DNA of 64,000 bases from Candidatus Latescibacterota bacterium (GTDB lineage: Bacteria > Latescibacterota > UBA2968 > UBA8231). The notes beneath the pieces were generated by a model. That model worked only from the letters and a program-made list of their open reading frames with translations, ran no database searches and was not told the DNA's origin. Position numbers and translations under genes: made by a program. Shown here one piece after another: positions 29,401-56,508 of the stretch (its first letter is position 1; each line of letters starts with the position of its first letter). Location of the stretch: contig OZ252098.1 in assembly GCA_965248355.1 (NCBI GenBank), forward strand, positions 1,920,001-1,984,000. Direction: 5' to 3'.

Positions 29401-29564
29401 ACGAGGCCCTGGGCCAGGTCTACGCCCGGCAGGGCCGCCTGCGGGAAGCGCGGGCCGAGTGGGAGACGGTCCTCCGGCTGAACCCGGGGCACCGCCGGGC
29501 CGCCGCCGCCATCCGGGAGGCGCGCCCCGGCTCCGCCTCCGCCGGCGGGGGCTACACCCAGTAG
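26478..29564 (+). CDS. FG-GAP/CRTAC1 (ASPIC-UnbV) lipoprotein with C-terminal TPR repeats
   Basis: Lipobox-like FLAIAC; repeated GDxDxDGxxDLYV; GIGARV...SHDPRLLFGLG (UnbV); multiple TPRs at the C-terminus. Confidence 0.87.
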   Translation: MLIRGTSSPGVTDAPWRKGSGAAPSRRAGRRIGVLLPFLAIACAPDPGPGPRDEEVARSAPPAAQVRTGPPAGETDTGAVFFVDVAGESGIDYENVSGSAEQGYILETISAGAAFLDVEGDGDQDLYLVNGTRLEDPPEAAGHRFYRHRGPGSTPLFEEATEEFGLSHTGWGMGCAVGDVDDDGDPDLYVTYWGANRLYLNEGGEGFTEAGRPAGVADGGWGSSAAFGDLDGDGLLDLYVANYVEFDLADPPGGWLGCRYKGLSSYCGPQGIPGQADRLYRNLGGGRFAEAGEGAGISRHRLPGLGVVLSDLDADGDPDIYVANDSEPNLLFRNEGGFRFREIGAAAGLAYSEDGRAQAGMGVHSGDYDRDGDLDLFVTNFSDDVNTLYANRGDGTFDDATHAAGLGGVVQPFLGWSTAFLDYDNDGWLDLFVANGHVYPQLGQLPSGLRYAQRNLLYRNVGGRFEEVGAQAGGDWQAEGVSRAAAVTDYDDDGDPDILFVNLNGRPALLRNEGGSRSGWFGLELAAEAGNLEGIGARVELWSAAGRQVREVQRGYGFQASHDPRLLFGLGSASEVDSLVVLWPSGLRERVIPEAGKGYWRLREGRGRLQPASLAPDRTPAAPAAIHRPAASEPPPAAGPDPGGPDWSAARYRETGEDLYRRGRYAEARTALERAIDREPEDIGSYVNLGLVLASGLGEEARAREVLEEAVTRDPGHPGARHVLGKLYLNQGRLPEALAALQAAHRLTPASWEYADWLGLALLRAGRPAAAETAFLQAARAAPWNPGPRLHLAQLYARQDRPADSDRERRIFARLRPLQDRAELYERKAGDYPDSPRARHLLGLVYLEQGRLPEALERFQEALELDPGFAATHHALGRLLQARGRLPQAVRYLERACELDPELLEAHVDLGSAYHRSSRYDLAVAAYERALAIDPERPLVYSNLGMAHAMAGRLETAAEAFREGLKRAPDSADLHEALGQVYARQGRLREARAEWETVLRLNPGHRRAAAAIREARPGSASAGGGYTQ

Positions 29565-34707: not shown

Positions 34708-36600
34708 ATGCATCTCAGACGTATAGGCATCGCGGGCTCGGCGACGCTCCTGCTGCTCGCAGGAACCGCGAGTGCCCAGTTCCTGCACGCCGGCAACCCC
34801 GACGTCACGTCCCTTTCGGACATGACCAGCGGAGGCCCGCCGACCGTGTTGAAGATCGAAGGTTTGTCGAGCTTCCCCGACTATGCCTTCGACGGCTCCG
34901 ACCTCGATGTCAACTTCACCCTCGAAGGCAGCGGAGCCACCGTCTGGCTCTTCGTCTATACCTCCGGCCAGAACCCGCCTCTGACCATCGAGGGAGAGGG
35001 TGATCCTCCTTACAAGGATCCCGTGCGCAACCAGCCCGGCTGGCACGTGTACGAAGGCGTCGACTACCTCGTCTACAAGTCCGCCGGCGAGCGCATGGAC
35101 GAGGGCGAGAACACCATTACCTGGAACGGCCGCGACAACGCCGGCAACGTCGTCTCCGCCGGCGCCTACAGCCTGCACCTGGCCGCCTTCGACGACGAGG
35201 CCTTCCCCCACCTCGTGGCCGGCTCCGTCTTCCGCAAGCTCGGGCCGCCCGGGCGCCCTTACTGGGATCTCGGCCGGGAGCAGATCTTCGACTTCCGCTT
35301 CGTCAACGACATGAACAACGACTGGGTCGAGAACTTCGAGGGCTTCGACACGATGGATCTGACCGCCGTCACCGACGCCGGCGGCAGCACGCCGAACTCG
35401 GCTGTGTTCCTCAATGACGACTTCACCGAGGCCCTCGCCATCGGCCAGAGCAACTTCCTCGAGCGCCTCACCCTCGACTGGGACGCCAACCGCGTCTCCA
35501 CCGTCGAGGACTGGGGCGAGGACTACGGCGGCGTCAACGGCGTCATCAACGTCGAGGACCTCGGCGCCAGCGCCGGCCAACGGATGATCGCCACCAATCC
35601 CGACAAGACCATCGCCTATCTCGCGGCGGGCGTGACCGGTACGGTGGCGCAGATCGCTTCCTACTCCATCGAGACCGGTGAGAAGCTTGCCAGCTGGGAC
35701 ATGACCGATCTCTTCCTCTACGACAACAAGGGGGCCGACCGGGTCAGCGCGCCCATGGAGTTTGCCCAGTTCTACGACGGCGCTCCGGATCCCTGGGGGA
35801 TCACCACGACATCTCACCACTCCTCCGTGATCGCGCGCTTCGACTACGACGGCAACCTCAAGTGGGCCAACCGCAACGGTGACGGCTTCGGCGATACCCA
35901 GGCCTACAACAGCGCCGACGGCACCTTCGGGGACCTGGTCTACGGACATACCGAGGCGCCCAACTTCAAGTACTCCCTGTTCTCGGCCCCGGACGGATGG
36001 GTCTCGGTCTGCGAGAACGGCCGCGACAACACCAGCTTCGGCGCCATGCTCGGTCAGGACGGTTCCGGCCTGTTCAAGTTCGAGCCCAAGAACACGCCCC
36101 TCACCTGGTCGCAGTACGTCTGCATCGTCGACGGGGACACCGAGTGGGACGGTCTGCACATGCAGATCGGCGGCTTCGGCGACGCGATCCCGTCCAACGA
36201 CTGGGTCTCGAACGACGTCACCGTCTCGCCGACCCATCCCCTCGCCCACTATCCGTACGACCAGAAGAAAGTAAGTCTGGGGATGCCCACGGCCGTTGCC
36301 GAGGTGGGAGGGCAGGTGCCCGGTGGCTACGAGGTCAGCGACGCCTACCCCAACCCCTTCAACCCGGAGACCACGGTTCGCTTCTCCCTGCCCTGGGAGG
36401 TGGATGTACGGGTCACGGTCTACAACGAGCAGGGCCAGAAGGTGGCCACCTTGGCCGATGAGCGCCTGGGTCCGGGCAACTTCGACATCACCTGGGACGG
36501 CACCGATGACAGTGGGGCCGCCGTCGCCTCCGGTGTTTATCTGTATCGGATCGAGGCCCCCGATCTGCGTCTGAACAAGAAGGTCACCTTCCTCAAGTAG
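34708..36600 (+). CDS. Secreted protein with N-terminal FlgD-Ig-like domain and C-terminal FlgD-Ig/T9SS-type CTD
   Basis: Signal peptide ...LLLLAGTASA; ITWNGRDNAGNVVSAGAY near the N-terminus; YPNPFNPET...WDGTDDSG...SGVYLYRI...KKVTFLK at the C-terminus. Confidence 0.8.
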   Translation: MHLRRIGIAGSATLLLLAGTASAQFLHAGNPDVTSLSDMTSGGPPTVLKIEGLSSFPDYAFDGSDLDVNFTLEGSGATVWLFVYTSGQNPPLTIEGEGDPPYKDPVRNQPGWHVYEGVDYLVYKSAGERMDEGENTITWNGRDNAGNVVSAGAYSLHLAAFDDEAFPHLVAGSVFRKLGPPGRPYWDLGREQIFDFRFVNDMNNDWVENFEGFDTMDLTAVTDAGGSTPNSAVFLNDDFTEALAIGQSNFLERLTLDWDANRVSTVEDWGEDYGGVNGVINVEDLGASAGQRMIATNPDKTIAYLAAGVTGTVAQIASYSIETGEKLASWDMTDLFLYDNKGADRVSAPMEFAQFYDGAPDPWGITTTSHHSSVIARFDYDGNLKWANRNGDGFGDTQAYNSADGTFGDLVYGHTEAPNFKYSLFSAPDGWVSVCENGRDNTSFGAMLGQDGSGLFKFEPKNTPLTWSQYVCIVDGDTEWDGLHMQIGGFGDAIPSNDWVSNDVTVSPTHPLAHYPYDQKKVSLGMPTAVAEVGGQVPGGYEVSDAYPNPFNPETTVRFSLPWEVDVRVTVYNEQGQKVATLADERLGPGNFDITWDGTDDSGAAVASGVYLYRIEAPDLRLNKKVTFLK

Positions 36601-36610
36601 GGAGGCCCCG

Positions 36611-36651
36611 GAGGTGCCGCCGGCTTGCTGCCGGCGGCACCTCTTTTTTTT
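36611..36651 (+). terminator. Rho-independent terminator
   Basis: 14-bp perfect stem GAGGTGCCGCCGGC / GCCGGCGGCACCTC, 5-nt loop, then T8. Confidence 0.9.
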
Positions 36652-36764
36652 CCGGCGAGCGGCCTGCGGCGGCGAGTCGGTAGATCCCCGCGCCAGTGGA
36701 TTGCTGCCTCAGTCTCGCGGCAGGATCGACTGTCGATGATTCCCTTCTCCACACGAGGTAAACA

Positions 36765-38903
36765 GTGAAGATTGCCAGACACCCCGGCTGGGCGCGACCC
36801 CTGGCTGTCGCGGGACTCTTCCTGTGTTGTGGCGGTCTGTCCGCCCAGGACCTGTCCAGCGTCGGGATCTCCACCTGGCCCTCCACGACTCGCTATCTCG
36901 GCTTCCCCGAGTTCGCAGCCGGTCAGGACGGCCAGATCCGGATCACCGCCGGCGGGCCCTACACCCTCTACCTCAACGGCGATCTCGTGGGCAGTGACGC
37001 GGATCCCTCCACCGTGGAGATCTGGCCGGACCTCGCCTTCAAGAAGAAGGAGAACCAGGTAGCCGTGGTGGTCGACCACGACGGCACCCGGAGCCCGTAC
37101 GGCGCCTACCTCGTGATCGACGGCGAGGAAGAGCAGTTCATCAGCTCTCCCACGGACCGCTCCATGCCCTGGTTCTGGTCCGGCGACCCCCTGCCCAACA
37201 AGGAGGGCGGCTGGACCAAGCTGAAGCTGAGCAAGCTCGACGAGCACGAGGAGGACGGGCGGCTCATCACCTGGCAGGCGGCGCAGCAGGGAACCCTGGA
37301 ACCACGGGACTTCGTGGAGTTCGAGGACCTGGACCTGACCCGGGCCGGCAGCGTGGCCGGCTTCCCCGGAGGCCTGTCCGGTCAGGAGCAGGGGCTGCAG
37401 TTGCGCAGCCTGGTGGGCCAGAACATGGCCCTCAACTCCCGCACCTCCGACCCGAATCTCGTCGATGGCGACATCACCAAGGGCGTCGCCTTCCGCAAGG
37501 GCGCCGCATCCTTGGGCCAGGGGGTGGGCACCGACCTCGGCCGGCTCCTGCTCCTCGAGCGGGTGCGCGTCATCACCGAGCCGCCCGGCCGCAACGACAC
37601 CTACGAAGACCTCGCCATCAGGGGCTACAGCGTCCTGATCAGCCAGAACGGCATCAGCTACCGCGAGGCGGGGGCGCGCAATCAGATCAGCACCTACCGG
37701 GAGAGCGACGTCGTCTTCCCGCCGACTCCCGCCCGCCACGTGAGCCTGAGGATCACCGAGTTCTCCTCCCGGGACGCCAATCCAAGGATCGGGGAGCTGG
37801 AGGTCTTCGCCCAGGGGCGGGACGACGAGGGCCGATACCGCTCCCCGCCGCTGGATCTGAGCTCCTCCGAGGTCAAGAACTTCGAGCGCGCCATCCGCTA
37901 TGGAGAGGTTCCCGCCAACACGGAGATGGAGCTTCGCTTTCGTAGCGGCGAGGACGGGGAGAGCTGGAGCGAGTGGTCGTCCTGGGACTCGCAGTCCGAG
38001 GTCGGACTGACCGTGCCCGAGCCGCGGAACTATCTCCAGTTCGAGGCGCGCATGCTGAGCCGGATTCTCGACGCCACCCCTCGGCTCGACAGCCTGGTGG
38101 TCTGGTTCGAGGAAGGCCCCTTTCCGGCCTCTCGTGCTTCCGGCTCCATCTCTCCGGCTCGTGCCTCCATCGGCGTCGATACGCTGTTCACCTATACGCT
38201 GCAACTGGAGATGCAGGACACCGACACGGGTGTGGGACGGCTGGCCATCCTGACCTCCTGGCCGGCCCAACTCGATGTCGGCGCCGTGCAGGGTCTGGGA
38301 GAGGCGGCCATCGCCTCCAGCTACGCCACGGCCGACTCCCTCGTGCTGATCTTCGATCCGCCCATCACCTCGGCCACCGGAACGACGGAGGTGGTCATCC
38401 CCTTCACCACGCGGCTGCTCTCCGCCAGCCACGACTTCCAGGGGTTGCTCTTCGCTCCCGGGAGTGCGGCCTCCCTCCAGGTCGAGAGGCGGGAGGGAAC
38501 CGATCCACAGACCGAGCTCCCGTACACCTCCATCACCGAGGCGGCGGACTTCAGCATTCCCATCCTCGACCACGTGCGAGCCCAACCCGGGGTCTTCACC
38601 CCCAACGGAGACGGCGCCAACGACTTCGCGGTGCTGGCCTTCACCCTCGGGCGCGTCTCCGGGTCTTCGGTCCACTTCGAGATCTATGATGTCGGCGGAA
38701 GGTTGGTGCGCAGCCTGCCGCCGAGTCTTCTCGACCCCGGAAGCTACTCCCCCATCGGGGGCCGGGAAGAGGACCTGCCCGGACGATGGGACGGCCTGGA
38801 TGACGAGGGAAGGCTGGTGCCGCCGGGGCTCTACCTGTATCGAATCGTCGTCGATCTGGAACCGGACGAGGTGGCCACGGGCGTGGTCGGACTCGCCTAC
38901 TAG
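36765..38903 (+). CDS. Secreted discoidin (F5/8 type C)-like protein with gliding-motility-type/FlgD CTD
   Basis: NLVDGD...DLGR...ARHVSLRIT...IGELEVF; CTD FTPNGDGAND...IYDVGGRLVR...WDGLDDEG...PPGLYLYRI; GAGG RBS before GTG. Confidence 0.72.
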   Translation: MKIARHPGWARPLAVAGLFLCCGGLSAQDLSSVGISTWPSTTRYLGFPEFAAGQDGQIRITAGGPYTLYLNGDLVGSDADPSTVEIWPDLAFKKKENQVAVVVDHDGTRSPYGAYLVIDGEEEQFISSPTDRSMPWFWSGDPLPNKEGGWTKLKLSKLDEHEEDGRLITWQAAQQGTLEPRDFVEFEDLDLTRAGSVAGFPGGLSGQEQGLQLRSLVGQNMALNSRTSDPNLVDGDITKGVAFRKGAASLGQGVGTDLGRLLLLERVRVITEPPGRNDTYEDLAIRGYSVLISQNGISYREAGARNQISTYRESDVVFPPTPARHVSLRITEFSSRDANPRIGELEVFAQGRDDEGRYRSPPLDLSSSEVKNFERAIRYGEVPANTEMELRFRSGEDGESWSEWSSWDSQSEVGLTVPEPRNYLQFEARMLSRILDATPRLDSLVVWFEEGPFPASRASGSISPARASIGVDTLFTYTLQLEMQDTDTGVGRLAILTSWPAQLDVGAVQGLGEAAIASSYATADSLVLIFDPPITSATGTTEVVIPFTTRLLSASHDFQGLLFAPGSAASLQVERREGTDPQTELPYTSITEAADFSIPILDHVRAQPGVFTPNGDGANDFAVLAFTLGRVSGSSVHFEIYDVGGRLVRSLPPSLLDPGSYSPIGGREEDLPGRWDGLDDEGRLVPPGLYLYRIVVDLEPDEVATGVVGLAY

Positions 38904-38914
38904 GCTCGCCTGCT

Positions 38915-41641
38915 ATGAGGAAGAGGGTCCCCCTAGACCAATCCATGCGCGCTCCCGTCGCTCTCACCCTCCTGGCCCTGTTGGGATCCACTCCGGACCT
39001 GGCGGAAGGGCAGTTCCTGTCCCGGGACTTCCGCGGGCTCTGGGCCAACCAGATCTTCGAGAACTACGGGGCCGCGGGCTACCGGGACTACGACCTGGAA
39101 GAGGAGAACCGGCGCTTCGACCTCTTCGGCGATCTCCTCATCGACGGCGTGGACATCATCGAGTACAGCGAGATCCGGCGGGACGCCCCCGGCATCCGGG
39201 GCAGCTTCGAGACACGCAACGCCCGCTACGAGCGCTTCTTCAGGAAGCTTGTCATCGCCAACGAGGGGTTCGGCAACTGGTCCACCCGCCTGATCATAGG
39301 GGATCACATCCGGACCTTCTTCACCCCCATGACGCTGAACCTGCCCAACTACAACGGGATCCGCTGGGACGGCGCCTCCCGGAAGAGCCGCTTCAGCCTC
39401 ATCGCCAGCCACCTGCGGGATCCGGTGGTGCTGGGCGGGGGCCTCGCCGTGGACCAGAACATCGAGGAGCGCCGGATCTGGGGGGGCAGCCTCTTCGGCG
39501 TTCATTGGGAGAGCCAGATCGGCGGCCTGCTCAAGCTCGGAACCACCTACGTCAACCTGCATCGCTTCGACTCCGAGGCCACTGCCAAGGTCAACAGCCT
39601 CAAAGGGACGATACCCGGGGTCATGCAGGGGGGGCTTCGCAAGGTCTTCGTGTTCTTCTCCGACGACTCCCCCCACGACGCCTTCGCCGGCGCCGCGGTT
39701 CACGAGTTGACCCTGACCGTGGACGGCACACCGGTGATGCCCTTGCGGGTGGGTCGGATCGACGGCCTCATCAGCAAAATCCCGGTCACGCCCGATCCGA
39801 CCAGCACCGTCCTGCTCGAGCCCCACGAGGTCGACTACCTCCGCCGCAACCGCTCCTGGCTGCGCGCCGTGGTCGAGGCCAGCCGGGACCGGTTCTTCGC
39901 CTCCCTGCTGGACGACATCACCACCGACATCACCGCCGAGGCCCTCACCTCCCGCGGCGCGCCCCTTCGCGCCGACGGGAGCGACGTCATCTACTTCGAG
40001 TACGAGGTCCCCGACACGGTGAGCGGTATCGACTTCAGCGCTGTCCTCGCCGACGACTACAGCGTGGACGTCGTGGGGGCCATGCTGGTGCCGATCCTGG
40101 CTCCGGGCGAGGACGACTTCTATTACGACTGGTACAACGCCCGCCGCGCCAGGGGACGGCCCGGCCACGGGTCGAACCGGCACCGGGTCGACTTCCACTA
40201 CGGGTTCCCCACCGGGCTGACCATCGCCGGGCTCGACTGGGACCTCAAGGCACTGGGGTTCCACCTCCAGGGGGAGTTCGCTCGCAGCCTGCGCTTCCTC
40301 CAGGTTCCCAACCGCAAGGCCAAGCGTCACCGCCGGGAGAGCTCGACCTTCTACTTCCGCCTCACCCGCCCCGTGCGCGAGCGGACCGAGCTCGGTTTCG
40401 AGTACTTCGACGTGCCCGACGACTACACCACCGAGTTCCCCCTCTTCCTGACCCAGCGCACCACGAAATCGGTCGGCGGCAGGCTCTACACGCCCTTCGC
40501 CCTCGTGGAGGACAACGACGATCTCGACTTCTGGCCGGACCGGGTGGAGCACAACGATCCGCTGGCGCCGTACGCGGACCCCCTGGGCAGTCAGTTCGGC
40601 CATCCCGGAAAGGGGGTCTACCCCGGCCTGGATCCGGACGACGACGGGGTCTTGGACTACAACCTGGACCTCGAGTTCGGCTCCGATTCCAGCCAGCCCT
40701 TCCTCGGCTACTACTCGGAGCCGTCCGGCCTGGTCTACGGCGACGACTTCGACAACAACGGGGTCGTCGACTACCGCGAGAACGACAACCTGCCGGACTA
40801 TGCCTATCCCCTCGACCACCGCGGCTTCCACGCCTTCGGTACCGTGGGGTTGAGCGCCCGGACCCAGATGCGGGCGGGGTGGTACAGGGTACGCCAGCCG
40901 GTCGTGGGAGGCCGCAACAACACCCAGTACGTCGAGGGGCAGTACCGACGGGACTGGGCGGGCCTGGGGTACCTGCGGTTGAACCACCGTATCAAGTGGA
41001 TGGAGGACGACATCCGCAACACGGTCTTCCGGTTCGGCAGCGTCGGCTCGCTCAATCCGGACCGCCTGGGGAGCCGGGACACGGTCAGCAACTTCACCTT
41101 CTTCGAGACCGGCCTGATGGCCGTGCCCGACGTCAACCTCCGCAACATCATCACCTTCGGCTTCTCGGAGCTGGCCGGGCGTCCCGTGGCCGATCCCTTC
41201 CTGACCATGCCGGGCCGATACACCGGTATCTCGGTGATGAACAAGATCGACTACACTTGGAGGCGCGGCCGGCTGACCGTTCTGCCCCAGTTCAAGCACA
41301 TCTACTACCGCAGCACCTCACCGGAGCGCCACCTGCCCTCTTCGCAGAGCCGCCAGGTCATACCGATTCTGCGCGCCGACTACCAGTTGACCCCCAGGAC
41401 CGAGCTCAGGACCGGCATCCAGGGGTTCCCCTTCTGGCGCGAGAAGACCACCTACGCGGTCCGGCCCGAGAGCCAGTACACGCGCCTGACCTACACGGCG
41501 ATGATCCAGAACCGGAGCAACTACCTGGGCTACGACTTGGTGCTGCTCATGGGCACGTACCGCAGCGAGGTTGACTACTCCGGATCCGACCGGCCGGGCA
41601 ACGGTTTCCTGCAGTATTTCTTCAGGATCTTCATCGGCTGA
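38915..41641 (+). CDS. Large exported protein, putative outer-membrane beta-barrel (paralog 1 of 3); alternative start 38945
   Basis: Signal peptide; amphipathic strands; Asp-rich loop; ends FFRIFIG; shares motifs with the next two genes. Confidence 0.65.
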   Translation: MRKRVPLDQSMRAPVALTLLALLGSTPDLAEGQFLSRDFRGLWANQIFENYGAAGYRDYDLEEENRRFDLFGDLLIDGVDIIEYSEIRRDAPGIRGSFETRNARYERFFRKLVIANEGFGNWSTRLIIGDHIRTFFTPMTLNLPNYNGIRWDGASRKSRFSLIASHLRDPVVLGGGLAVDQNIEERRIWGGSLFGVHWESQIGGLLKLGTTYVNLHRFDSEATAKVNSLKGTIPGVMQGGLRKVFVFFSDDSPHDAFAGAAVHELTLTVDGTPVMPLRVGRIDGLISKIPVTPDPTSTVLLEPHEVDYLRRNRSWLRAVVEASRDRFFASLLDDITTDITAEALTSRGAPLRADGSDVIYFEYEVPDTVSGIDFSAVLADDYSVDVVGAMLVPILAPGEDDFYYDWYNARRARGRPGHGSNRHRVDFHYGFPTGLTIAGLDWDLKALGFHLQGEFARSLRFLQVPNRKAKRHRRESSTFYFRLTRPVRERTELGFEYFDVPDDYTTEFPLFLTQRTTKSVGGRLYTPFALVEDNDDLDFWPDRVEHNDPLAPYADPLGSQFGHPGKGVYPGLDPDDDGVLDYNLDLEFGSDSSQPFLGYYSEPSGLVYGDDFDNNGVVDYRENDNLPDYAYPLDHRGFHAFGTVGLSARTQMRAGWYRVRQPVVGGRNNTQYVEGQYRRDWAGLGYLRLNHRIKWMEDDIRNTVFRFGSVGSLNPDRLGSRDTVSNFTFFETGLMAVPDVNLRNIITFGFSELAGRPVADPFLTMPGRYTGISVMNKIDYTWRRGRLTVLPQFKHIYYRSTSPERHLPSSQSRQVIPILRADYQLTPRTELRTGIQGFPFWREKTTYAVRPESQYTRLTYTAMIQNRSNYLGYDLVLLMGTYRSEVDYSGSDRPGNGFLQYFFRIFIG

Positions 41642-41642
41642 C

Positions 41643-44456: not shown

Positions 44457-44460
44457 CCCC

Positions 44461-47616: not shown

Positions 47617-47618
47617 GG

Positions 47619-50867: not shown

Positions 50868-50891
50868 CCAACTCCCATTCGTGAGGACCGC

Positions 50892-51452
50892 ATGGTTTCG
50901 ATAGATTACCGTTATCTCTTTCTCCTGGCCCTCACCGGGACGCTGCTGACCGCAGGCGGCCCGGGATTGGCTCAGGAGCCGGAGGAGAGGTTCCAGGTAC
51001 GCGAGCAATCCGCCTCCAGGAAGCAGGCCGTGGCCCTCGCCGTGGCCTTTCCCGGACTCGGTCACCTGGCCACCGGACACCGGGAAAAGGGGACCGCCCT
51101 CGTGACCGCCGAGATACTCGGCCTCGTGATATGGCTGACGTCGCACGCCGACTACAAGACCCAGTCCGAGCAGGTCGACGTGGAGAAGATCCGCTACGCG
51201 TCGATTCGAGAGGGCGGAACCCACGATGAGGCGGAGGAGAGCTGGCGGCGTCTGAACAGCCTGAGGGAGGATGCCGACGGCTCGCACCTGCGGCGGCGCC
51301 TCTTCGGGGTCCTCGCCATCGGCGTGTACGGGTACAATCTCCTCGATGCCCTGCTCCTGGGGGGGCTGGAGCCGCCCGGCGGCGGACGCGTCGGTCTGGT
51401 GCCCTCGGCGACTCCGGACCAAGCGGGGCTGGCCCTTGTGGCCCGCTTCTGA
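50892..51452 (+). CDS. Membrane/exported protein, DUF5683-like
   Basis: AVALAVAFPGLGHLATG motif, GYNLLDA, terminal ...LALVARF. Confidence 0.6.
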   Translation: MVSIDYRYLFLLALTGTLLTAGGPGLAQEPEERFQVREQSASRKQAVALAVAFPGLGHLATGHREKGTALVTAEILGLVIWLTSHADYKTQSEQVDVEKIRYASIREGGTHDEAEESWRRLNSLREDADGSHLRRRLFGVLAIGVYGYNLLDALLLGGLEPPGGGRVGLVPSATPDQAGLALVARF

Positions 51453-51477
51453 GGCGAGACGAGAGAAGGGAGTCCAG

Positions 51478-51864
51478 ATGGTGAGAAGAGCGGGTTTGAG
51501 CGTCGTCCTGGCCGGGGTGGTTCTCGTCTGGTCATGCAGCGACGACATCGAGCTGCCCACGGCCTATCACGAAGGATACCTGTCGCAACCCTCGGAAGTG
51601 ACCTCCGCCGTGGAGGACGGCGCCATCAATGTCTCCTGGAGCATGGCCTCCGAGGCCGACGTCGAGGGGTTCGTCGTCGGTTTCACGGACTCCAGCGGAG
51701 CCGAGCACACGAGGTCCATCGAGGATCCGGCGGCGAGACTTCACTCGGAGCAGGAGTTGGGCGTCGGCCCGGGCACCGTCTACTTGATCCAGGTGTGGGC
51801 CTTCGATGCGAAGGGGTACTTCGGCCCCCGGTCGGAGGTCGACACCCTGGCGGTCCAGGAGTGA
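51478..51864 (+). CDS. Lipoprotein with fibronectin type III-like domain
   Basis: Lipobox LVWSC; PSEVT...INVSWS...GTVYLIQVWAFDAKG..GPRS. Confidence 0.7.
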   Translation: MVRRAGLSVVLAGVVLVWSCSDDIELPTAYHEGYLSQPSEVTSAVEDGAINVSWSMASEADVEGFVVGFTDSSGAEHTRSIEDPAARLHSEQELGVGPGTVYLIQVWAFDAKGYFGPRSEVDTLAVQE

Positions 51865-51913
51865 CCTGACCGGATGACCTCGGCGCCACCGACCGGAGCC
51901 ACAGGCGGAGAGC

Positions 51914-53146
51914 ATGGCTGAGTCGCAACGCTTCCGCGCTCCCAGTGACGGCCTCGACCTGCAGGGCCTCTGGCGCGAGACCGTCAACTACACCGTCCGC
52001 GGGCTTCTCATCGGTTTCGTGGCGGTGACGGGGGCTCTGCTGTACCTGGTGCTGAGGGTCGAGGAGAGGGCGGCTCCGGAGCCGGCGGTGACCCGGCTCA
52101 TCATCCGCAAGCCCAGATCGACCAAGTCCTTCACCCTCAAGCGGCAGCGCCTCCGCCCGCGGGCCCTGACCAAGCAGGTCACGGCCCTGACCCCCCGGCT
52201 CTCCCTGCCCTCGGCCCGCCGGCTGGCCGGACCCTCCGTCTTCGGTACGGTCCAGAGCTTCGATTACGCGCCGGACACGGACGTGCAGATCAACCTCCAG
52301 TCCGGCCCCATCGAGTTGTCCGCCGCCACCATCCGGGGCACGAAGGAGCCGGGCAAGCGCATCGCCATGCGCGAAGAGCTGATCGACCTGAACGCCCTGG
52401 ACACCGGGAAGTACAAGGGGCTCATCATCCAGGATCCGACGGACCGGCGCAATGTCAAGGGGTTCGTCTATCTGGGTACGGCCTGGGCCAACGATCTGGA
52501 GCCGACCTTCGACAGCGCCGCCCGCGCCATTCCCAACCTCGTGGACGCCCTCAACGCCCAGACGGGGATCACCGCCAAGGTGGACGCCCACCTCTTCCTC
52601 GACTCCCAGGAGCTCTTCCGCACGCCCTTCGTGTACGTCACGGCCGAGGAGGCTTTCGAGCTGACGGAGCGGGAGCTGCGTAACCTGGGAGAGTACCTGA
52701 GGCGGGGGGGATTCATATTCGTCGACAACGCCACGCCTCTGACCGAGTTCAGCCAGGGAGAGGCCTCCCTGCGCCGGATCTTCCGGGACGCCCTCGGAGC
52801 CGAGGGCCAGTTGCGGCCCATCTCCAACAACCACCCCATCTACCACACCTTCTACGACTTCGACGGCCCTCCGGTGGGCACGGAGATGGAGAACCCCACC
52901 TTCACCCAGCAGCGGGAACGGGACTACCTCGTCTTCGCCCAGCAGACCTACTATCTCGAAGGCGTATTCCTGGGGGACCGGCTGGTGGGCGTTTACTCGG
53001 ACAAGGGGTACGTCCACATGTGGGCGCGAAACTTCGGCAACGAGCCACAGTTGAGGTTCGGGATCAACGCCGTCGTCTTCGCCCTGACCCAGGAGGGCTC
53101 CATCGCGCAGCAACAGATCGATTTCTTCAGCCAGCGCACCCAGTGA
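51914..53146 (+). CDS. Membrane-anchored DUF4159-domain protein
   Basis: Single N-terminal TM, basic Pro-containing linker, then PFVYVT, LGEYLRRGGFIFVDN, HPIYHTFYDF, RFGINAVVFALTQEG. Confidence 0.82.
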   Translation: MAESQRFRAPSDGLDLQGLWRETVNYTVRGLLIGFVAVTGALLYLVLRVEERAAPEPAVTRLIIRKPRSTKSFTLKRQRLRPRALTKQVTALTPRLSLPSARRLAGPSVFGTVQSFDYAPDTDVQINLQSGPIELSAATIRGTKEPGKRIAMREELIDLNALDTGKYKGLIIQDPTDRRNVKGFVYLGTAWANDLEPTFDSAARAIPNLVDALNAQTGITAKVDAHLFLDSQELFRTPFVYVTAEEAFELTERELRNLGEYLRRGGFIFVDNATPLTEFSQGEASLRRIFRDALGAEGQLRPISNNHPIYHTFYDFDGPPVGTEMENPTFTQQRERDYLVFAQQTYYLEGVFLGDRLVGVYSDKGYVHMWARNFGNEPQLRFGINAVVFALTQEGSIAQQQIDFFSQRTQ

Positions 53147-53160
53147 GAGAGAGGGTGGCC

Positions 53161-53937
53161 ATGCGTTCAGTCATTCCATCGCTGCTGATCCTCAGTGGCT
53201 GCAGCCATTTTCAACCGGAGGCGATCCTCTACTCGAACGAGCTGGTCCCCAGTTCCTACCAGGCCAGCGAGGATCGGTACACCGTCGACGAGGACGGTGC
53301 CGTCACCTACGTTCTGGAGGGACTCCGCGTCCGGGTGGAGCCCATGGAGGACGACGAGCTCAGCGCGATCTTCCCCGAGGAGTCGACGCGCGGCCAGTTC
53401 TCCACCAATCCCTATACATACGGAGACTGGATCGATCCGCTTGTCGGGCACACGCCCAAGCGCTTTACCGTCTTCCGCGTCACGATCATCAACGACATCT
53501 ACGCCAAGGTGCTGCTCGATCCGATCAAGGCCATGCTGTACACCGATCAGGGAGAGGTTCTTCATGCCTACGGTCTGCCCTCGGTCTCTCCCCACAACAG
53601 CTTCGAGCGCTACTACCGGGCCATCCGGGGACAGAGCGGCAACGAGTTCTACCGCTTCGACCTGCGCATGGGGAACGTGCGCAGCACGGCCTATCTCGAG
53701 GATGTGAGGGTGTTCAAGGGCGAGAGCTACTCCGGCCTGCTCGCCTTCGACCCCCTGAACGAAGAGGTGGGGCAGGTCAGACTGACGCTGAGGGACTTCG
53801 TGACCAAGTTCGACGCTTCCGGTCAGCCCATGGAGACGGTGGACATCTCCATGGAGTTCGACCAGGAGATCGAGAGAAGAGTAGCGCCGCGAACAGCGGC
53901 GAGGCAGGTACCGCCGAGCGGTGACCAGGCTCCCTAG
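53161..53937 (+). CDS. Hypothetical lipoprotein
   Basis: Lipobox LILSGC; NPYTYG, FTVFRVTIIN, GESYSGLLAFDPL. Confidence 0.72.
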   Translation: MRSVIPSLLILSGCSHFQPEAILYSNELVPSSYQASEDRYTVDEDGAVTYVLEGLRVRVEPMEDDELSAIFPEESTRGQFSTNPYTYGDWIDPLVGHTPKRFTVFRVTIINDIYAKVLLDPIKAMLYTDQGEVLHAYGLPSVSPHNSFERYYRAIRGQSGNEFYRFDLRMGNVRSTAYLEDVRVFKGESYSGLLAFDPLNEEVGQVRLTLRDFVTKFDASGQPMETVDISMEFDQEIERRVAPRTAARQVPPSGDQAP

Positions 53938-54844
53938 ATGGATCCCGGCGATCGTCCTGGGCGCTGCCTTCGGGCCGGGCGGAGCCGGGGAGATCGTTCA
54001 CCCGCCGCCCCTGAGCATCGCCCTGCTCGACTTCGAGGATCTGGCGGGCTTTCAGGGCAGCTGGACCCTGGCCCGGGACATACCCGAGTTCCTGGGCCGA
54101 CACCTCGACGGAGAGGATGCCTTTGACGTCGTGCCCCCGCAGCGCGTGGTGGAAATCCAGGCGGACCCCCGCCTCTCGGGGCTGGAGGGCCGGGACCTGG
54201 CGGTGGCGGCCGGTCGTCTGCTGGACGCCGATATCGTCATCCGAGGGGTCGTGGAGACCTTCGGCATGCGTCGGGTCACCGCGGGAGATCCGAATCTGGC
54301 GGGATACAAGTCCTACCGTTCGCGCGTTCACATCGAGGATGTGGAGGTGATTCGCGTGGCCACGGAGCAGGTCCTGGGAACTGTCGCGGCGAGCCGGGAC
54401 TCCACGGAGACCCCCCTCGGCCTGGATCTCTTCGGCCGCCCGCGCAGGCAGGATCGCGAGTTCAGGGAGCTCTTCCACCTCGACTTCGGCTCCGAGCGGT
54501 TCTACGAGTTGCCACTGGGCATGGCGGCCGACGCGGTCTTCGAGGAGTTGCGCAGAGAGATCGCCGCCGTGCTGATCGATCGTCCGGCCATCGATCTGAC
54601 GAGTGACAACGCCGTGGTCCTGGCCGTGGACGAGGACGAGGTCTTTCTCGGGATCGGGGTCGACGACAACGTCGAGTACGGAGACCTGCTGCCCCTCTAC
54701 CGGGATGGCCTTCGCGTGGCCCTGGTGAAGGTCAGCGAGGTGATCGGTCCCCACCTGAGCAAGGCGACGATCGTCGACGGCGACCAGGTGGAGACGGGAT
54801 CCAGGATCGGTCAGCGCCTCTCGAGGACCGGAGATGTGGAGTGA
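53921..54844 (+). CDS. CsgG/HfaB/FlgO-like protein with FlgT-C-like C-terminal domain
   Basis: IALLDFED...FDVV...AGRLLDADIVIRGVVETFG; C-terminal VLAVDEDEVFLGIG...GD...ALVKVSEV...SKATI. Confidence 0.6.
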   Translation: MTRLPRWIPAIVLGAAFGPGGAGEIVHPPPLSIALLDFEDLAGFQGSWTLARDIPEFLGRHLDGEDAFDVVPPQRVVEIQADPRLSGLEGRDLAVAAGRLLDADIVIRGVVETFGMRRVTAGDPNLAGYKSYRSRVHIEDVEVIRVATEQVLGTVAASRDSTETPLGLDLFGRPRRQDREFRELFHLDFGSERFYELPLGMAADAVFEELRREIAAVLIDRPAIDLTSDNAVVLAVDEDEVFLGIGVDDNVEYGDLLPLYRDGLRVALVKVSEVIGPHLSKATIVDGDQVETGSRIGQRLSRTGDVE

Positions 54845-54921
54845 GCACTGCCTTTGAAGTATCCAATTCCAGAATTCACGCGGTGAGCTGAGAGCTCCGA
54901 CAGCGAGAAGGAGACGGACAG

Positions 54922-55665
54922 ATGTGGGAGGTCATTCAGAGCGGTGGACCCCTGATGGTTCCACTGGCCGCTTGTGCCATCCTGGCCATCGGTTATTCCA
55001 TCGAGCGATTCTGGGTCTTCAGCCAGTTGCCCTCGCACGAGGACGCCCAGGAGAACCTGGAGCGCCTCGAGCACGCCCTGCGGGACGGCGGCGCGGCCCG
55101 GGTCGTGGCGGAGTGCAATGAAGGCAGAGGGTTGCTGAACTTCGTGTTCGCCTCGCTCCTGCGACGCTACGACACTCTCAGGATCGAGCAGCAGGAGTTC
55201 AAGGAGACCAACGAGGAGATCATGCGTCTGGCCCAGGCCGGCGGCGGCGGCGAGGTCAGCCGGTTCATGGTGCTGCAGCGAGAGCTGACCGACCTCAAGG
55301 ACGAGCTGGTCATCGAGACCGAGGAGTCCGCCCGGTCCTATCTCGGCAAGCACCTGCCGATCCTGAACACGATCGGAAACATCACCCCCCTCATCGGGCT
55401 CCTCGGAACGATTCTGGGCATGATCATCGCCTTCGAGTCGATCGCCGTGGCCGGCGCCGGTGATCCCAGGGTCGTGGCCGGAGGCATCTCTCAAGCACTG
55501 GTCACGACGGCATCGGGCCTGATCATCGCCATTCCGACCATCGTTGCCTACCGCTACCTGGCCCGCCGAGCCGACAAGATGCTCGAGCACGTGGAGATGT
55601 ACGGCCACGCCTTCGCCAATGCCCTGATCACCACGGGCCAGCGACAGGAGGCCGCCGGACAGTAG
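54922..55665 (+). CDS. exbB: MotA/TolQ/ExbB proton channel protein
   Basis: GGPLMVPL...IERF; TIGNITPLIGLLGTILGMI; GGISQALVTTASGLIIAIP; AAGGAG RBS. Confidence 0.92.
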   Translation: MWEVIQSGGPLMVPLAACAILAIGYSIERFWVFSQLPSHEDAQENLERLEHALRDGGAARVVAECNEGRGLLNFVFASLLRRYDTLRIEQQEFKETNEEIMRLAQAGGGGEVSRFMVLQRELTDLKDELVIETEESARSYLGKHLPILNTIGNITPLIGLLGTILGMIIAFESIAVAGAGDPRVVAGGISQALVTTASGLIIAIPTIVAYRYLARRADKMLEHVEMYGHAFANALITTGQRQEAAGQ

Positions 55666-55680
55666 GTCGGCGCGCAGACC

Positions 55681-56094
55681 GTGGGCAGACACCGCACACG
55701 ACCGGGCTTCGCCGACGAAGGAGGGCCGGATCTCGCTCCTCTCATCGACTGCGTCTTCCTGCTGCTCATCTTCTTCATGGTGACCACCGTCTTTCTGCAC
55801 ACCAAGGGCCTCGAGGTGGACATGCCGGCCAAGAGCGAGGCCACCGAGGAGCAGAAGAAGGACATCAACATCGTTCTCGACCGCGACGGCAAGATCCAGA
55901 TCAAGGGAGAGGAAGTAGCTCCCGACCAGTTGGCCGCCCGTCTCGTGACCGCCATGGAAGAGGCCAACAACGAGAACATCATCATCCAGGGGGATGGCGA
56001 CTGCCCCCAGGAGCACGTGGTCTACGTCGTGGATACGGCCAAGAGCGTGGGAGTGGTGGGAATCGCCTTCGCCAGAGAGCAGGAGGAGGAGTAG
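55681..56094 (+). CDS. exbD: ExbD/TolR biopolymer transport protein
   Basis: DLAPLIDCVFLLLIFFMVTT with conserved Asp; IIIQGD. Confidence 0.92.
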   Translation: MGRHRTRPGFADEGGPDLAPLIDCVFLLLIFFMVTTVFLHTKGLEVDMPAKSEATEEQKKDINIVLDRDGKIQIKGEEVAPDQLAARLVTAMEEANNENIIIQGDGDCPQEHVVYVVDTAKSVGVVGIAFAREQEEE

Positions 56095-56097
56095 AAA

Positions 56098-56508
56098 TTG
56101 CCGAGACACCGGTCCGTGTACGAGGAAGATTCCATGGACATGACGCCGCTCATCGACTGCGTCTTCCTCCTGCTGGTGTTCTTCATGGTCACCACGGTGT
56201 TCAAACAGCCCTACAGCCTGCAGGTCGAACTTCCCGAGGCGACGCAGGCGCAGGTGGTGGAAGAGAAGAAGCTGGTGGCGTCGATCACCGCGGACGGCCG
56301 CATGGAGATCAACCGCCATCCCGTGACCTTGGAGAACCTCGAGCAGGTGCTTCAGCGCGAGAAGGTGGGGACCCGCAGCCTGACCCTGGTGGTGCGGACC
56401 GACAAGAAGACCAAGCATCGGCACCTGCTGGACCTGTTCGAGGTGGCCAAGCGCGTCGGGATCGAAAAGATCCCCTTGGCGACGGACAACTTCAAAGAGG
56501 ACGACTGA
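56098..56508 (+). CDS. exbD: ExbD/TolR biopolymer transport protein (second copy)
   Basis: DMTPLIDCVFLLLVFFMVTT; VELPEA; VVRTDK. Confidence 0.92.
   Translation: MPRHRSVYEEDSMDMTPLIDCVFLLLVFFMVTTVFKQPYSLQVELPEATQAQVVEEKKLVASITADGRMEINRHPVTLENLEQVLQREKVGTRSLTLVVRTDKKTKHRHLLDLFEVAKRVGIEKIPLATDNFKEDD

Follow-up and report, generated by a model that had tools for sequence, protein, structure and literature searches.

In Bacteroidota, energy for the T9SS is supplied by GldL/GldM, and the PorP/SprF and PorV proteins handle its type B and type A cargo, respectively. The Agl-Glt core complex consists of AglR, AglQ, AglS, GltD, GltE, GltG and GltC (Luciano et al. 2011, PMC3169522). That study describes this core as multi-copy in polysaccharide degraders, where its function is unknown, and as unlikely to drive motility alone; a table gives GltH as about 209 aa. 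A structural model of Glt (PMC11761067) links the AglR5QS motor to three barrels, a TPR pillar and TonB-CTD proteins, with the barrel N-termini becoming ordered only when a TPR protein is bound. Williams-Jones et al. (2025, PMC12204202) describe TM-anchored 'vWA' force transducers whose genes neighbour tolQ, two tolR genes and a TPR gene; DUF4159, Latescibacteria and giant barrels have no occurrence in the main text of that paper.

We analysed a window of 64,000 nt (OZ252098.1, positions 1,920,001–1,984,000, forward strand; all coordinates below are positions in this window) from a 5.5 Mb Latescibacterota genome assembled as a single contig and 95.7% complete. A first-pass annotation had singled out 14 co-oriented, tightly packed envelope genes at 34708–56508, and the ORF calls, gap lengths and coding-like GC3 across the block bear this out. 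The interval contains exactly 14 ORFs, all on the plus strand, which overlap or are separated by 1–77 nt with the sole exception of g1 and g2 (164 nt); at the barrel/TPR/g7/g8 junctions of this copy the gaps are 1–25 nt. The block encodes two CTD-tailed proteins, three paralogs of 908–1051 aa, a TPR protein of 1082 aa, four small proteins, a TM-DUF4159 protein and ExbB-ExbD-ExbD. The features of the locus are as follows.

29552..31501, minus strand: possible accessory DUF6785/DUF6784 polytopic protein, a candidate inner-membrane permease
34708..36600, plus strand: g1 (CTD1), secreted protein of 630 aa with a T9SS-type C-terminal sorting domain and an N-terminal part without assignment
36610..36644, plus strand: terminator-like hairpin directly 3' of g1, with a 15 bp stem, 12 G-C pairs and a T-run
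36765..38903, plus strand: g2 (CTD2), secreted, lectin-like protein of 712 aa with a weak CHU_C/FlgD_ig-type tail
38915..41641, plus strand: bar1, predicted giant outer-membrane barrel of 908 aa
41643..44456, plus strand: bar2, 937 aa, paralog of bar1 with 30% identity
44461..47616, plus strand: bar3, 1051 aa, paralog of bar1 with 26% identity
47619..50867, plus strand: g6, TPR protein of 1082 aa, probably periplasmic
50892..51452, plus strand: g7, small membrane protein, DUF5683-like
51478..51864, plus strand: g8, lipoprotein of 128 aa, weakly FN3-like
51914..53146, plus strand: g9, bitopic inner-membrane protein with a DUF4159 head, a candidate force transducer
53161..53937, plus strand: g10, lipoprotein of 258 aa, the short form of a two-form family
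53921..54844, plus strand: g11, secreted protein of 307 aa, CsgG/LpoB/FlgT-like at lead level
54922..55665, plus strand: g12, ExbB/TolQ-type stator subunit (PF01618 MotA_ExbB, 99 bits)
55681..56094, plus strand: g13, ExbD/TolR paralog 1 (PF02472, 96.6 bits)
56098..56508, plus strand: g14, ExbD/TolR paralog 2 (PF02472, 108.2 bits)

Signal peptides, lipoboxes and TM segments were called by eye and with a hydropathy scan; the lipoboxes read by eye are ..VWSC in g8 and ..LSGC in g10. Five of the 14 proteins (bar1, bar2, bar3, g10 and g11) have no Pfam family and nine have no NCBIfam family. RNA-library contigs from two studies span all of 36550–56549, and one contig of 6.6 kb runs from g6 to g14; this evidence is weak, as the contigs may stem from DNA carry-over.

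The block is best read as a single, substrate-specific copy of a trans-envelope module that Latescibacterota carry repeatedly. The idea of a single special machine was not upheld: this genome carries five full modules with the same gene order and, in addition, about eight reduced cassettes, which keep barrels, CTD2-like genes and g10 and lack TPR, DUF4159 and motor genes. Of 151 genomes sampled from the phylum, 94 contain the barrel family, a single genome having as many as 103 first-look candidates. In all five full modules the genes run CTD1-CTD2-bar1-bar2-bar3, with CTD proteins just 30–52% identical between modules; fixed order combined with such divergence is the pattern of substrate-specific paralogous loci. 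Related loci in other genomes were anchored on g9, and 56 of them were well covered (at least 20 kb of sequence), with the motor scored within 10 kb. The core of barrels, TPR and g10 around the DUF4159 gene g9 is present in 51 of the 56, in four gene arrangements, and 30 of these 51 also have ExbB. Across the 56, ExbB occurs in 31 loci, always with ExbD, and the other 25 have no motor within 10 kb. The synteny check supports the proposed conserved multi-gene envelope unit, both by the order kept in five modules and by the shared core. We found no published description of the module in the literature searched, nor any described system that the locus matches, as the first-pass annotation had supposed.

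Glycan-catabolism or transport genes flank all five modules (CBM9, PcRGLX-like, UxuA, sulfatases, fucosidase, GH43-like, DUF4838 and an ABC sugar-type transporter). The DUF6785/DUF6784 protein upstream of the present block (Pfam 440 and 103 bits; twelve hydrophobic segments) belongs to a family found just upstream of four of the five modules, which also has members at 11 of 78 related loci.

The three paralogs at the centre of the block had been called barrel-like, in agreement with the identities given above and with the bar1 model; position-specific orthologs of bar2 and bar3 occupy the second and third positions, respectively, in four of four sister modules. Bar1 is predicted to fold as a giant outer-membrane barrel, with about 28–30 long strands in the AF2 model (pLDDT 76.3, pTM 0.74). 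Its best Foldseek matches are MtrB, SlpA and LptD, VIA gives SlpA (8agd_A) at Z 16.4 over 423 residues, and Wzi is also among the fold matches (Z 13.3). The N-terminus of bar1 is conserved in sequence and modelled with low confidence. None of the three proteins matches a Pfam or NCBIfam family, Plug and TBDT families included, they revealed neither a plug domain nor a TonB box, and the Pfam, NCBIfam and Foldseek scans revealed no similarity to PorV or PorP. We rejected the possibility that the barrels are ordinary TBDTs: the latter appear only as generic Foldseek barrel matches with TM <0.3, and the best fold match of bar1 is a giant barrel of SlpA type.

The ExbB-ExbD-ExbD set recognised in the first pass exceeds the curated Pfam cut-offs with the scores listed above. 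g12 displays three hydrophobic segments in the hydropathy scan. g13 and g14 share about 32% identity, and all 21 sequences aligned for each keep its proton-binding TM aspartate (D23 and D20, respectively). The identity of g12 is 66–71% to the ExbB of sister modules M3 and M4 and 32% to the TonB-linked ExbB of the genome; by this measure of sequence, the module motor set is distinct from the TonB-linked set.

Between motor and barrels lie the genes for the putative periplasmic and lipoprotein parts. g6 matches many TPR families above the Pfam cut-off, with YbgF/CpoB-type repeats at 212.7 bits and BamD-type repeats at 137.3 bits, and was found in 55 of the 56 well-covered loci; no Glt model is among its 23 NCBIfam matches at E <= 0.01, from a library that may hold no GltD model. 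The hydrophobic stretch noted at its N-terminus does exist; it is short and below the TM threshold, and is therefore more signal-peptide-like than anchor-like. g7 scores 22 bits for DUF5683 against a cut-off of 26.7 (27.7 bits, above cut-off, in a sister copy) and g8 scores 16.8–18.2 bits for fn3 against a cut-off of 25; they are present in 27 and 24 of the 56 loci, respectively. g9 consists of a conserved cytoplasmic N-terminal motif, a TM helix (residues 31–49), a linker of ~100 residues with Pro motifs, and the DUF4159 head (residues 196–391; 105.3 bits, above the Pfam cut-off), with a relative in the PDB (4i66_A, E 9e-14). Its conserved motifs include RFxxPSDxL, APxP and IRKP. The gene sits two to three genes from ExbB here and directly adjoins ExbB in M3, M4 and arrangement B. 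The TM helix has no conserved His or SHLS/Ser-His motif in the window copy or close orthologs, and a TM-helix His is seen only in some distant subgroups of a 43-row alignment; coupling of g9 to the motor is therefore a candidate step.

The AF2 model of g10 (pLDDT 88.7) is a beta-sandwich with a helical insert that has only generic fold matches. The long form of this family ends in an AgmX/PglI TonB-C-like domain (NF033768, 53–66.6 bits in six of six tested); sister modules M1 and M2 have this form, as do 34 of 78 related loci. The Glt-type domain has no match in the whole 64 kb window (custom HMM, with NCBIfam on the block proteins). For g11, the CsgG/FlgT-like label stands at lead level only: Atlas feature scores to CsgG/LpoB/FlgT_C clusters are 0.93–0.94, the comparison with FlgT (3w1e) is weak at E 0.55, the window copy has no Pfam match (PF03783, PF16538/9 and PF13036 included), and among 21 orthologs FlgT_M, CsgG and FlgT_C match in three, two and two, respectively, with a best E of about 1e-3.

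The first-pass annotation also described two CTD-bearing secreted proteins, and this holds in full for g1, which exceeds the Pfam cut-offs for FlgD_ig (69.7 bits) and CHU_C (28 bits) and the NCBIfam cut-off for the T9SS type A sorting domain (TIGR04183, 28.7 bits against 23). The tail of g2 is detected only below cut-off (CHU_C 21.6, FlgD_ig 16.6), as is its F5/8 type C domain (17.4). In the four g2 sisters, CHU_C again scores under the cut-off of 27 (17.8–26.4 bits), and F5/8 type C rises above its cut-off of 28.2 in three (52.1, 35.5 and 43.5 bits). Orthologs of g1 are the first gene in all five modules, and a strong hairpin followed by a U-run (-24 to -36 kcal/mol) occupies the same post-g1 site in five of five, its sequence not being conserved. 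Because a terminator-like hairpin comes directly after g1, we infer that g1 is made in excess.

Pfam, NCBIfam and genome searches confirmed that the block is free of TonB, TBDT, Tol-Pal and T9SS core genes: its 14 proteins contain no TonB_C, TBDT, Tol-Pal or T9SS core match. Several of these components are present elsewhere in the genome. The only TonB_C match lies at genome position 2229876 beside another ExbB/ExbD set, and about 20 TBDTs (22 PF00593 matches) are found, none at a module. SprA is present as a single gene at 427–432 kb of the genome, unlinked to any module; one PorU gene is at 4.99 Mb of the genome and a second lies in the window at 12316–16002, 19 kb upstream of the block; and a PorV-like gene scores 157.8 bits, under the cut-off of 250. 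The genome check suggested in the first pass therefore found SprA, two PorU, a PorV-like gene and TonB outside the block, and did not detect GldL, GldM (two models) or GldN in the genome. When 151 genomes of the phylum were searched, GldM exceeded its cut-off in 0; the same search detected it in 9 of 41 from a different phylum. About 50 CTD-bearing ORFs are spread widely over the genome.

Comparison with Agl-Glt/Nfs reveals one TolQ-like and two different TolR-like subunits in each (here g12, g13 and g14). By analogy, g6 may correspond to the TPR protein of about 1100–1200 aa that forms the periplasmic pillar, and the three barrels, lipoprotein and g1/g2 to three outer-membrane barrels with a lipoprotein and surface adhesin. 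The conserved, low-confidence N-terminus of bar1 may likewise parallel the Glt barrel N-termini of the published model. The resemblance proposed in the first pass goes beyond parts logic, with sister modules carrying the AgmX/PglI TonB-C-like domain of GltG and GltJ. There are also clear differences: the barrels are 908–1051 aa here and about 200–270 aa in GltA/B/H; the TonB-C-like domain is on a lipoprotein rather than a TM/FHA protein and is missing from the window copy; the DUF4159 TM protein, T9SS-tailed lectin-like cargo, g11 and g7/g8 are without Glt counterparts; and no cytoplasmic platform genes (GltI, AglZ, MglA link) were seen in the module block. As with the 'vWA' transducers, the TM helix, linker and globular alpha/beta head of g9 replace the TonB/TolA C-terminal domain, and the gene lies in synteny with one ExbB/TolQ gene, two heterologous ExbD/TolR genes and a gene for a TPR protein; unlike them, g9 has a DUF4159 head by Pfam and a TM helix lacking SHLS/His. 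The module shares with Ton/SusC-SusD systems a proton-driven ExbB/ExbD motor, many paralogous loci per genome amid catabolic genes and, by analogy, large barrels beside surface glycan-binding proteins. It departs from them in having no TonB_C, Plug/TBDT match or SusD-like gene at the locus, and in having three different barrels per locus with a SlpA-type fold rather than the 22-strand TBDT. Common to T9SS loci are the type A sorting domain of g1, the near-threshold CHU_C (type B) of the g2 family and cargo genes adjoining genes for outer-membrane barrels, as in the SprB–SprF pair, whereas the block's ExbB/ExbD motor, TPR protein and DUF4159 are not T9SS parts, and its barrels match neither the PorV nor the PorP family.

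The reading that we prefer, tentatively and at somewhat less than even probability, is a PUL-like, motor-driven module for glycan capture and uptake related to the Agl-Glt core complex. ExbB, ExbD1 and ExbD2 would form a proton-driven inner-membrane stator whose work would be passed to g9 through its TM helix, linker and DUF4159 head, and g9 and g6 would span the periplasm and reach an outer-membrane complex made up of g10, g11 and the three different giant barrels. g1 and g2 would be exported by the genome's separate T9SS, with g1 made in excess, to act as surface glycan binders. Captured polysaccharide, as polymer or fragments, would move through the barrels and then be taken in by a permease, for example the DUF6785/6784 protein encoded nearby. 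Gene context leans towards import over export or display; by analogy the function resembles that of a SusC/D- or Ton-type importer, and the descent looks related to the Agl-Glt/Nfs core complex. Counted in favour are the packing, the five ordered modules, the co-occurrence in 51/56 loci and 94/151 genomes, the predicted bar1 barrel, the F5/8 type C domains of the g2 family, the catabolic flanks, the distinct motor, the Glt-type TonB-C-like domain of sister modules, the parallel with the Glt model and the RNA contigs. Counted against are the window copy's lack of that domain, a g9 TM helix without the conserved His or SHLS motif, barrels in which neither plug domain nor TonB box was seen, a motor within 10 kb in just 31/56 loci, and T9SS-type tails and Glt-domain homology that suit a surface-adhesin machine equally well. 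In this reading, a gene set of uncultured Latescibacterota connects a proton-driven membrane motor with sugar-binding proteins of the surface and three very large pores in the outer membrane, most likely for the capture and uptake of complex sugars.

Such a surface machine, a Glt/Nfs-like motor in which the stator moves or tensions a barrel platform holding g1 and g2 as adhesins for attachment to particles or host matrix, for gliding or for conveying surface polymers rather than for import, is unlikely. The GltG/GltJ-type AgmX/PglI domain (34/78 loci and two sister modules), the parallel in Agl-Glt parts (three barrels, giant TPR, TolQ and two TolR; PMC11761067 and PMC3169522), the adhesin- or lectin-like cargo with T9SS tails and the apparent excess of g1 would all suit it. 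At least five divergent copies among catabolic genes nevertheless speak more for specialisation by substrate than for a single motility apparatus. Pfam and NCBIfam showed no Glt-like genes for a cytoplasmic platform in the block, the barrels are 4–5 times larger than GltA/B/H, and the core complex by itself is regarded as an unlikely motility driver by Luciano et al. (PMC3169522). A cargo-specific branch or energiser of the T9SS, whose barrels receive or anchor CTD proteins and whose ExbB/ExbD stand in place of GldL/GldM, is rather improbable. The roughly 50 widely spread CTD ORFs far outnumber the few modules, the only SprA gene is unlinked to them, 25 of 56 related loci have no nearby motor, the barrels resemble neither PorV nor PorP in the scans, and PorM-type proteins may be too diverged for TIGR03517 or PF12081; on the other side stand the two CTD proteins that open each module, the PorU gene 19 kb upstream, the GldM count (0/151 against 9/41) and the failure to find GldL, GldM and GldN despite SprA, two PorU and a PorV-like gene. 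We see only a slim chance that the ExbB/ExbD-TPR-DUF4159 modules are the PMF input for T9SS-type cargo, each a cargo-specific, motor-driven station in the outer membrane that receives CTD proteins on its three different giant barrels and moves or loads them, a reading that arises because GldL/GldM/GldN are undetected while SprA, PorU and PorV-like genes are present; if true, the family would be an evolutionary link joining Ton, Agl-Glt and T9SS.

Envelope maintenance by a Tol-Pal-like tether, or export of capsule or exopolysaccharide through the barrels, is very unlikely. Many divergent copies, each with lectin-like cargo, are unexpected for a housekeeping tether, and Pfam and NCBIfam found no glycosyltransferase, Wza/Wzc, Pal or TolB genes in the block; the YbgF/CpoB- and BamD-type repeats beside a TolQ/TolR-like motor, the lead-level CsgG/LpoB likeness of g11 and the Wzi fold match point the other way, as does a Wzy_C gene 5 kb downstream of the block, although conservation with the module does not extend to the genes downstream. 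It is scarcely probable that there is no single machine at all, and that a barrel and CTD unit and a TPR/DUF4159/motor unit are independent and often adjacent. The reduced cassettes, and the published sets of TPR, tolQ, two tolR and a TM-headed transducer (PMC12204202), would agree with two units, whereas barrels, TPR and g10 occur together in 51/56 g9-anchored loci across four arrangements, with the 1–25 nt junction gaps described above.

The two mutually exclusive g10 forms are a new observation. The genome holds eleven g10 paralogs; among the 78 related loci, a long g10 and g11 occur together in 0, and the short form, of the type seen in the window, is followed by a CsgG/FlgT-like gene in 29.

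The block at window 34708–56508 consists of 14 open reading frames on the + strand with GC3 of the coding type, separated by 1–77 nt or overlapping except for a gap of 164 nt behind g1. The 14-gene block recognised here by the first-pass annotation is thus borne out by the ORFs and their GC3, by the Pfam and NCBIfam scans and by the conserved transmembrane aspartates of the two ExbD proteins, which do not vary in any of the 21 orthologs aligned for each, out of 33 available sequences.

Genes of the module (+ strand, window 34708–56508) and their matches to Pfam and NCBIfam
g1 (CTD1): FlgD_ig, 69.7 bits; CHU_C, 28 bits; T9SS type A sorting domain TIGR04183, 28.7 bits (cut-off 23)
g2 (CTD2): CHU_C, F5/8 type C and FlgD_ig, all sub-threshold in the window copy
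g3–g5 (bar1, bar2, bar3): 908, 937 and 1051 aa, without any family
g6: TPR protein of 1082 aa, repeats of YbgF/CpoB and BamD type
g7: DUF5683-like, 22 bits, under cut-off
g8: lipobox, weak FN3 likeness
g9: one TM helix, then DUF4159 at 105.3 bits
g10: lipoprotein without family
g11: without family
g12: ExbB, 99 bits
g13, g14 (ExbD1, ExbD2): ExbD, 96.6 and 108.2 bits

F5/8 type C lectin domains score over the cut-off in three of the four sister copies of g2, and neither g1 nor g2 matches the PDB by sequence below E 0.03. An alignment of 43 of the 68 distinct g9 orthologs shows a conserved cytoplasmic motif, RFxxPSDxL, followed by a TM helix without histidine, an APxP and an IRKP motif that are likewise conserved, and the DUF4159 head, whose sole solved relative is the uncharacterised protein Hoch_4089 (4i66). 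Prediction of a complex between ExbD1, ExbD2 and g9 residues 1–135, run without controls, gave a score of 0.00 and a mark of 0.32, which weighs neither for nor against such a contact. The previous description of g11 as CsgG/FlgT-like stands as a lead: the window copy falls into no family, and a likeness to CsgG, LpoB or FlgT is held at that level.

The three large proteins are paralogous, as had been proposed, with bar2 and bar3 sharing 30% and 26% identity with bar1. An AlphaFold2 model of bar1, built from 44 sequences (the query, 41 of 46 search matches and two paralogs), has a pLDDT of 76.3 and a pTM of 0.74, and contains approximately 28–30 long antiparallel strands with an inserted domain at residues 241–365. 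Foldseek ranks MtrB, Deinococcus SlpA and LptD highest, all with TM < 0.3, and VIA-align places SlpA first, aligned across 423 residues with Z 16.4, before porins and ushers at Z 12–14. The model and both structure searches therefore indicate that bar1 is a giant outer-membrane barrel, outside every described family, and no TonB-dependent receptor. That the large proteins might fold as ordinary receptors of this type, which the first-pass annotation had named as grounds for rejecting its proposal, is ruled out by family scans, by the two structure searches on bar1 with their SlpA-type match, and by a map of the source genome in which none of the 22 TonB-dependent transporter matches lies at a module. 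An Asp/Asn-rich stretch at residues 530–634 has invariant residues and is modelled with low confidence. Residues 25–112 are near-invariant in sequence, yet their pLDDT is below 50; the N-termini of GltA/B in the Glt model likewise become ordered only on the TPR protein GltC, according to PMC11761067.

The window lies in a single contig of 5.50 Mb, and tblastn mapping of the source genome (G000) revealed five full modules, named here by position, that all begin CTD1-CTD2-bar1-bar2-bar3.

Continuation of the five modules behind the five-gene start
151 kb and 496 kb: TPR-DUF4159-g10
550 kb: g7-g8-g9-ExbB-ExbD-ExbD-DUF4340 ... TPR-g10-g11
1574 kb: TPR-g9-ExbB, without ExbD
1954 kb: the window copy

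The module ExbB proteins are 66–71% identical to one another, versus 32% to the ExbB beside the genome's sole TonB_C gene. There are also around eight reduced cassettes, in which one barrel or two are accompanied by several CTD2-like genes and g10. In the 1574 kb module, a PQQ/BamB-like beta-propeller gene follows ExbB (L100:89–826, a stretch of the same genome at 1592089–1592826) where ExbD is absent, and in the 550 kb module a DUF4340 protein lies behind ExbD2. In motor-less loci of other genomes a DUF4340 protein is accompanied by an additional TPR protein of 426 aa and by a transglutaminase-like protein (related stretches L011:17270–18613, L050:13681–14616 and L057:15218–16183).

Scanning genome contigs with the g9 alignment gave 160 matching stretches. 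A relative is encoded in 131 of these, and the best 80, which represent 78 distinct loci, were carried forward; g1 matches limited to the sorting tail were left out of the locus map. The synteny search that had been suggested as a check recovered the core of barrel, TPR protein and g10 around g9 in nearly every locus with sufficient sequence, and the order of the first five genes is kept in the five modules of the source genome.

Genes near g9 in the 56 loci that span 20 kb or more of sequence, among the best 80 of 131 relatives
Barrel: 53/56
TPR protein: 55/56
g10: 53/56
Barrel, TPR protein and g10: 51/56
ExbB, with an ExbD every time: 31/56
Barrel, TPR protein, g10 and ExbB: 30/56
g11: 22/56
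g7: 27/56
g8: 24/56

Four arrangements were seen, one of which has a divergent ExbB-ExbD-ExbD set upstream of TPR-g9-g10-CTD2-bar-bar-CTD2. Of the 151 genomes sampled from the phylum, 94 match the barrel profile, among them all 63 of the window's own family and none of the 30 and 19 that represent two further families in that class. In a set of 1.84 billion cluster representatives the profile finds 844 at E ≤ 1e-3, of which 588 pass 1e-10 and 277 pass 1e-30. Source names of the relatives all read 'hypothetical protein'; most are Latescibacterota, and some are labelled Gemmatimonadota, Poribacteria or Handelsmanbacteria. The module is real and strongly conserved.

Orthologs of g10 occur in two lengths, approximately 250 aa (the window copy) versus approximately 400 aa (alignment of 39 of 64 orthologs). 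All six long forms scanned carry NF033768, the 'AgmX/PglI C-terminal domain' (53–66.6 bits, NCBIfam cut-off 40), with weaker NCBIfam matches to GltG, GltJ and tonB_Cterm and 12.7–24.7 bits to Pfam TonB_C. In the source genome NF033768 occurs exactly twice, in g10 of the 151 kb module and in g10 of the 496 kb module, the two that have no motor of their own. Our HMM of the long tail matches 34 of the 78 loci, and nothing anywhere in the window, while g11 is found in 29; because the two never occur together (0/78), the g10 position is completed in two alternative ways, with the window copy representing tail-less g10 plus g11. Five of the six remaining g10 loci end at the border of the available sequence and one is divergent. 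ExbB lies within the sequence of 24 of the 29 g11-type loci versus 13 of the 34 long-g10 loci. The idea that g11 derives from the TonB-C-like tail of long g10 by divergence was rejected for want of similarity, the best BLASTP match (E 0.011) covering 32 residues outside the tail. The g10 model (pLDDT 88.7) is a beta-sandwich with a helical insert, for which Foldseek returned nothing at E ≤ 1e-3; in a wide VIA search the best matches were YcdA (Z 8.5) and YjhA (Z 7.5), generic beta-sandwich likenesses that imply no function.

Directly 3' of g1, a strong GC-rich hairpin with a U-run is present in all five modules (window 36610–36644; G000 near 153.1, 497.9, 551.9 and 1576.7 kb), kept in position and not in sequence. 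This suggests that g1 is produced in excess over the other genes, as if by partial termination. A sigma-70 promoter scan returned no sites and no terminator-like site was found behind g14. The downstream genes at 56691–59259 match no Pfam family and recur in one and none of the 78 related loci, so the module border was placed at 56508. Contigs from metatranscriptomic libraries of two studies cover 36550–56549 at 90–99% likeness; one run pair fills all 30 bins of this interval, a single 6.6 kb contig reaches from 49994 to 56549, and 'sponge metagenome' is the label of two runs. These contigs show neither strand, level nor transcript ends, and since DNA carry-over into RNA libraries is possible the coverage is a weak sign of transcription.

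Glycan-related genes are present in the flanks of all five modules (raw presence among 17 + 82 + 14 ORFs scanned). In the window these encode two CBM9 proteins, a PcRGLX-like protein, UxuA, an oligogalacturonate-lyase-like protein and a GFO/IDH/MocA oxidoreductase; around the other modules they encode sulfatases, a fucosidase, a GH43-like protein, DUF4838, FG-GAP/ASPIC proteins and an ABC sugar-type transporter. Just upstream of four of the five modules, and in 11 of the 78 related loci, is a polytopic DUF6785/DUF6784 protein with 11–12 hydrophobic segments (stretches L093:12419–14482, L097:16299–18275 and L099:17048–18973, and twice in the window), a candidate for the inner-membrane permease step.

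Features of the window on either side of the module
9979–12300 (+): DUF6785/DUF6784 gene
21805–22767 (−): second, shorter DUF4159 gene outside any module, 320 aa, DUF4159 score 86.8 bits, sharing 51% identity with the g9 head
22778–26749 (−): adjoining PcRGLX-like (rhamnogalacturonan-lyase-type) protein, 1323 aa
29552–31501 (−): DUF6785/DUF6784 gene
31602–33689: relative of the transglutaminase-like protein of motor-less loci
33593–34507 (+) and 59246–60055 (+): CBM9-type proteins, with relatives in 16 of the 78 related loci
61264–62955 (+): Wzy_C (O-antigen ligase-type) gene

The HMM scan for secretion and Ton genes advised by the first-pass annotation shows that the source genome contains one SprA, one TonB_C and, under the cut-off at 157.8 bits, a PorV-like gene adjoining one of two PorU genes that score over it, whereas GldM (TIGR03517, PF12081), GldL (TIGR03513) and GldN (TIGR03523) were not detected. 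The other PorU lies at window 12316–16002 (−), 19 kb upstream of the module, and is of the full-length sortase type (Peptidase_C25 261.5 bits, NF033707 543.8 bits). Across the phylum, GldM exceeds the cut-off in none of the 151 genomes, its single match scoring 20.3 bits. The first positive control, the genome of the related stretch L091, yielded nothing; in its phylum, the later control, the same search places GldM above the cut-off for 9 of 41 genomes. The search therefore works, and a diverged PorM may still exist in the phylum.

Of the systems described so far, the Agl-Glt/Nfs core complex comes nearest; as presented in PMC3169522 and PMC11761067, it shares with the module the logic of the motor, a TPR protein of giant size and a set of three barrels. 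Two sister modules have the AgmX/PglI domain itself in common with it; the window copy is without this defining feature, and the module barrels, DUF4159, g11 and the T9SS cargo have no Glt counterpart there. Williams-Jones et al. (2025, PMC12204202) report TM-anchored 'vWA' transducers of unknown function that adjoin a TPR gene, tolQ and two tolR genes; their main text mentions neither DUF4159 nor Latescibacteria. A paper on polysaccharide utilisation in Latescibacteria proposes uptake only via porins and classical TonB. No description of the module was found in the searchable literature on DUF4159, which consists of the Pfam paper, on Latescibacteria ExbB or outer membrane, or among the papers listed on T9SS outside Bacteroidota, nor any report of a T9SS in Latescibacteria, subscription papers lying outside the scope of these searches. 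The proposal that the locus matches no described system holds for this literature, and the module is new within the family of 5:2-motor-driven trans-envelope systems.

Our tentative preference is for motor-driven glycan capture and uptake, a reading in which the gene content is observed and the contacts and direction of transport are inferred. ExbB, ExbD1 and ExbD2 would form the stator, g9 the inner-membrane transducer and the TPR protein g6 a periplasmic pillar, with three different giant barrels, g10 and g11 making up the outer-membrane part and g1 and g2 serving as surface binders delivered by T9SS. The shared architecture with Agl-Glt/Nfs is also what a Glt/Nfs-like surface motor moving adhesins would display, a reading that we consider unlikely. 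More doubtful still is a cargo-specific branch or energiser of the T9SS, to which the sorting domain of g1 and the null results for GldL, GldM and GldN in a genome with SprA and PorU might point. Envelope maintenance or polymer export, to which the YbgF/CpoB- and BamD-type repeats of g6 might point, is less probable again. We give very little credence to two independent units that are merely neighbours: barrel, TPR protein and g10 stand together around g9 in 51 of the 56 loci.

If motor-driven glycan uptake is correct, a widespread uncultured phylum that includes sponge-associated and marine lineages would feed on polymers via an importer unlike SusC/D or TonB-dependent transporters, comprising three giant barrels driven by ExbB/ExbD through a non-TonB coupler. 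This may also represent an ancestral job for the 'core complex of unknown function' that underlies gliding in Myxococcus. The alternative g10 forms provide a natural experiment on the path that motor force takes to the outer membrane; the barrel, g10 and DUF4159 families are now without functional annotation, and some 844 barrel clusters at 50% identity could be named.

Two further observations concern the source genome. A Mutator-family transposase (121 bits) lies at window 5992–7263 (−), where local GC is 0.61 versus approximately 0.70–0.74 around it. On the 3' side of the 151 kb module (L094:8314–16766, G000 177–186 kb), there is a separate set with two ExbD genes and, by tblastn, a weak ExbB-like match just upstream, continuing with an unidentified gene, a TamB-like protein of 1434 aa and an Omp85/POTRA protein.
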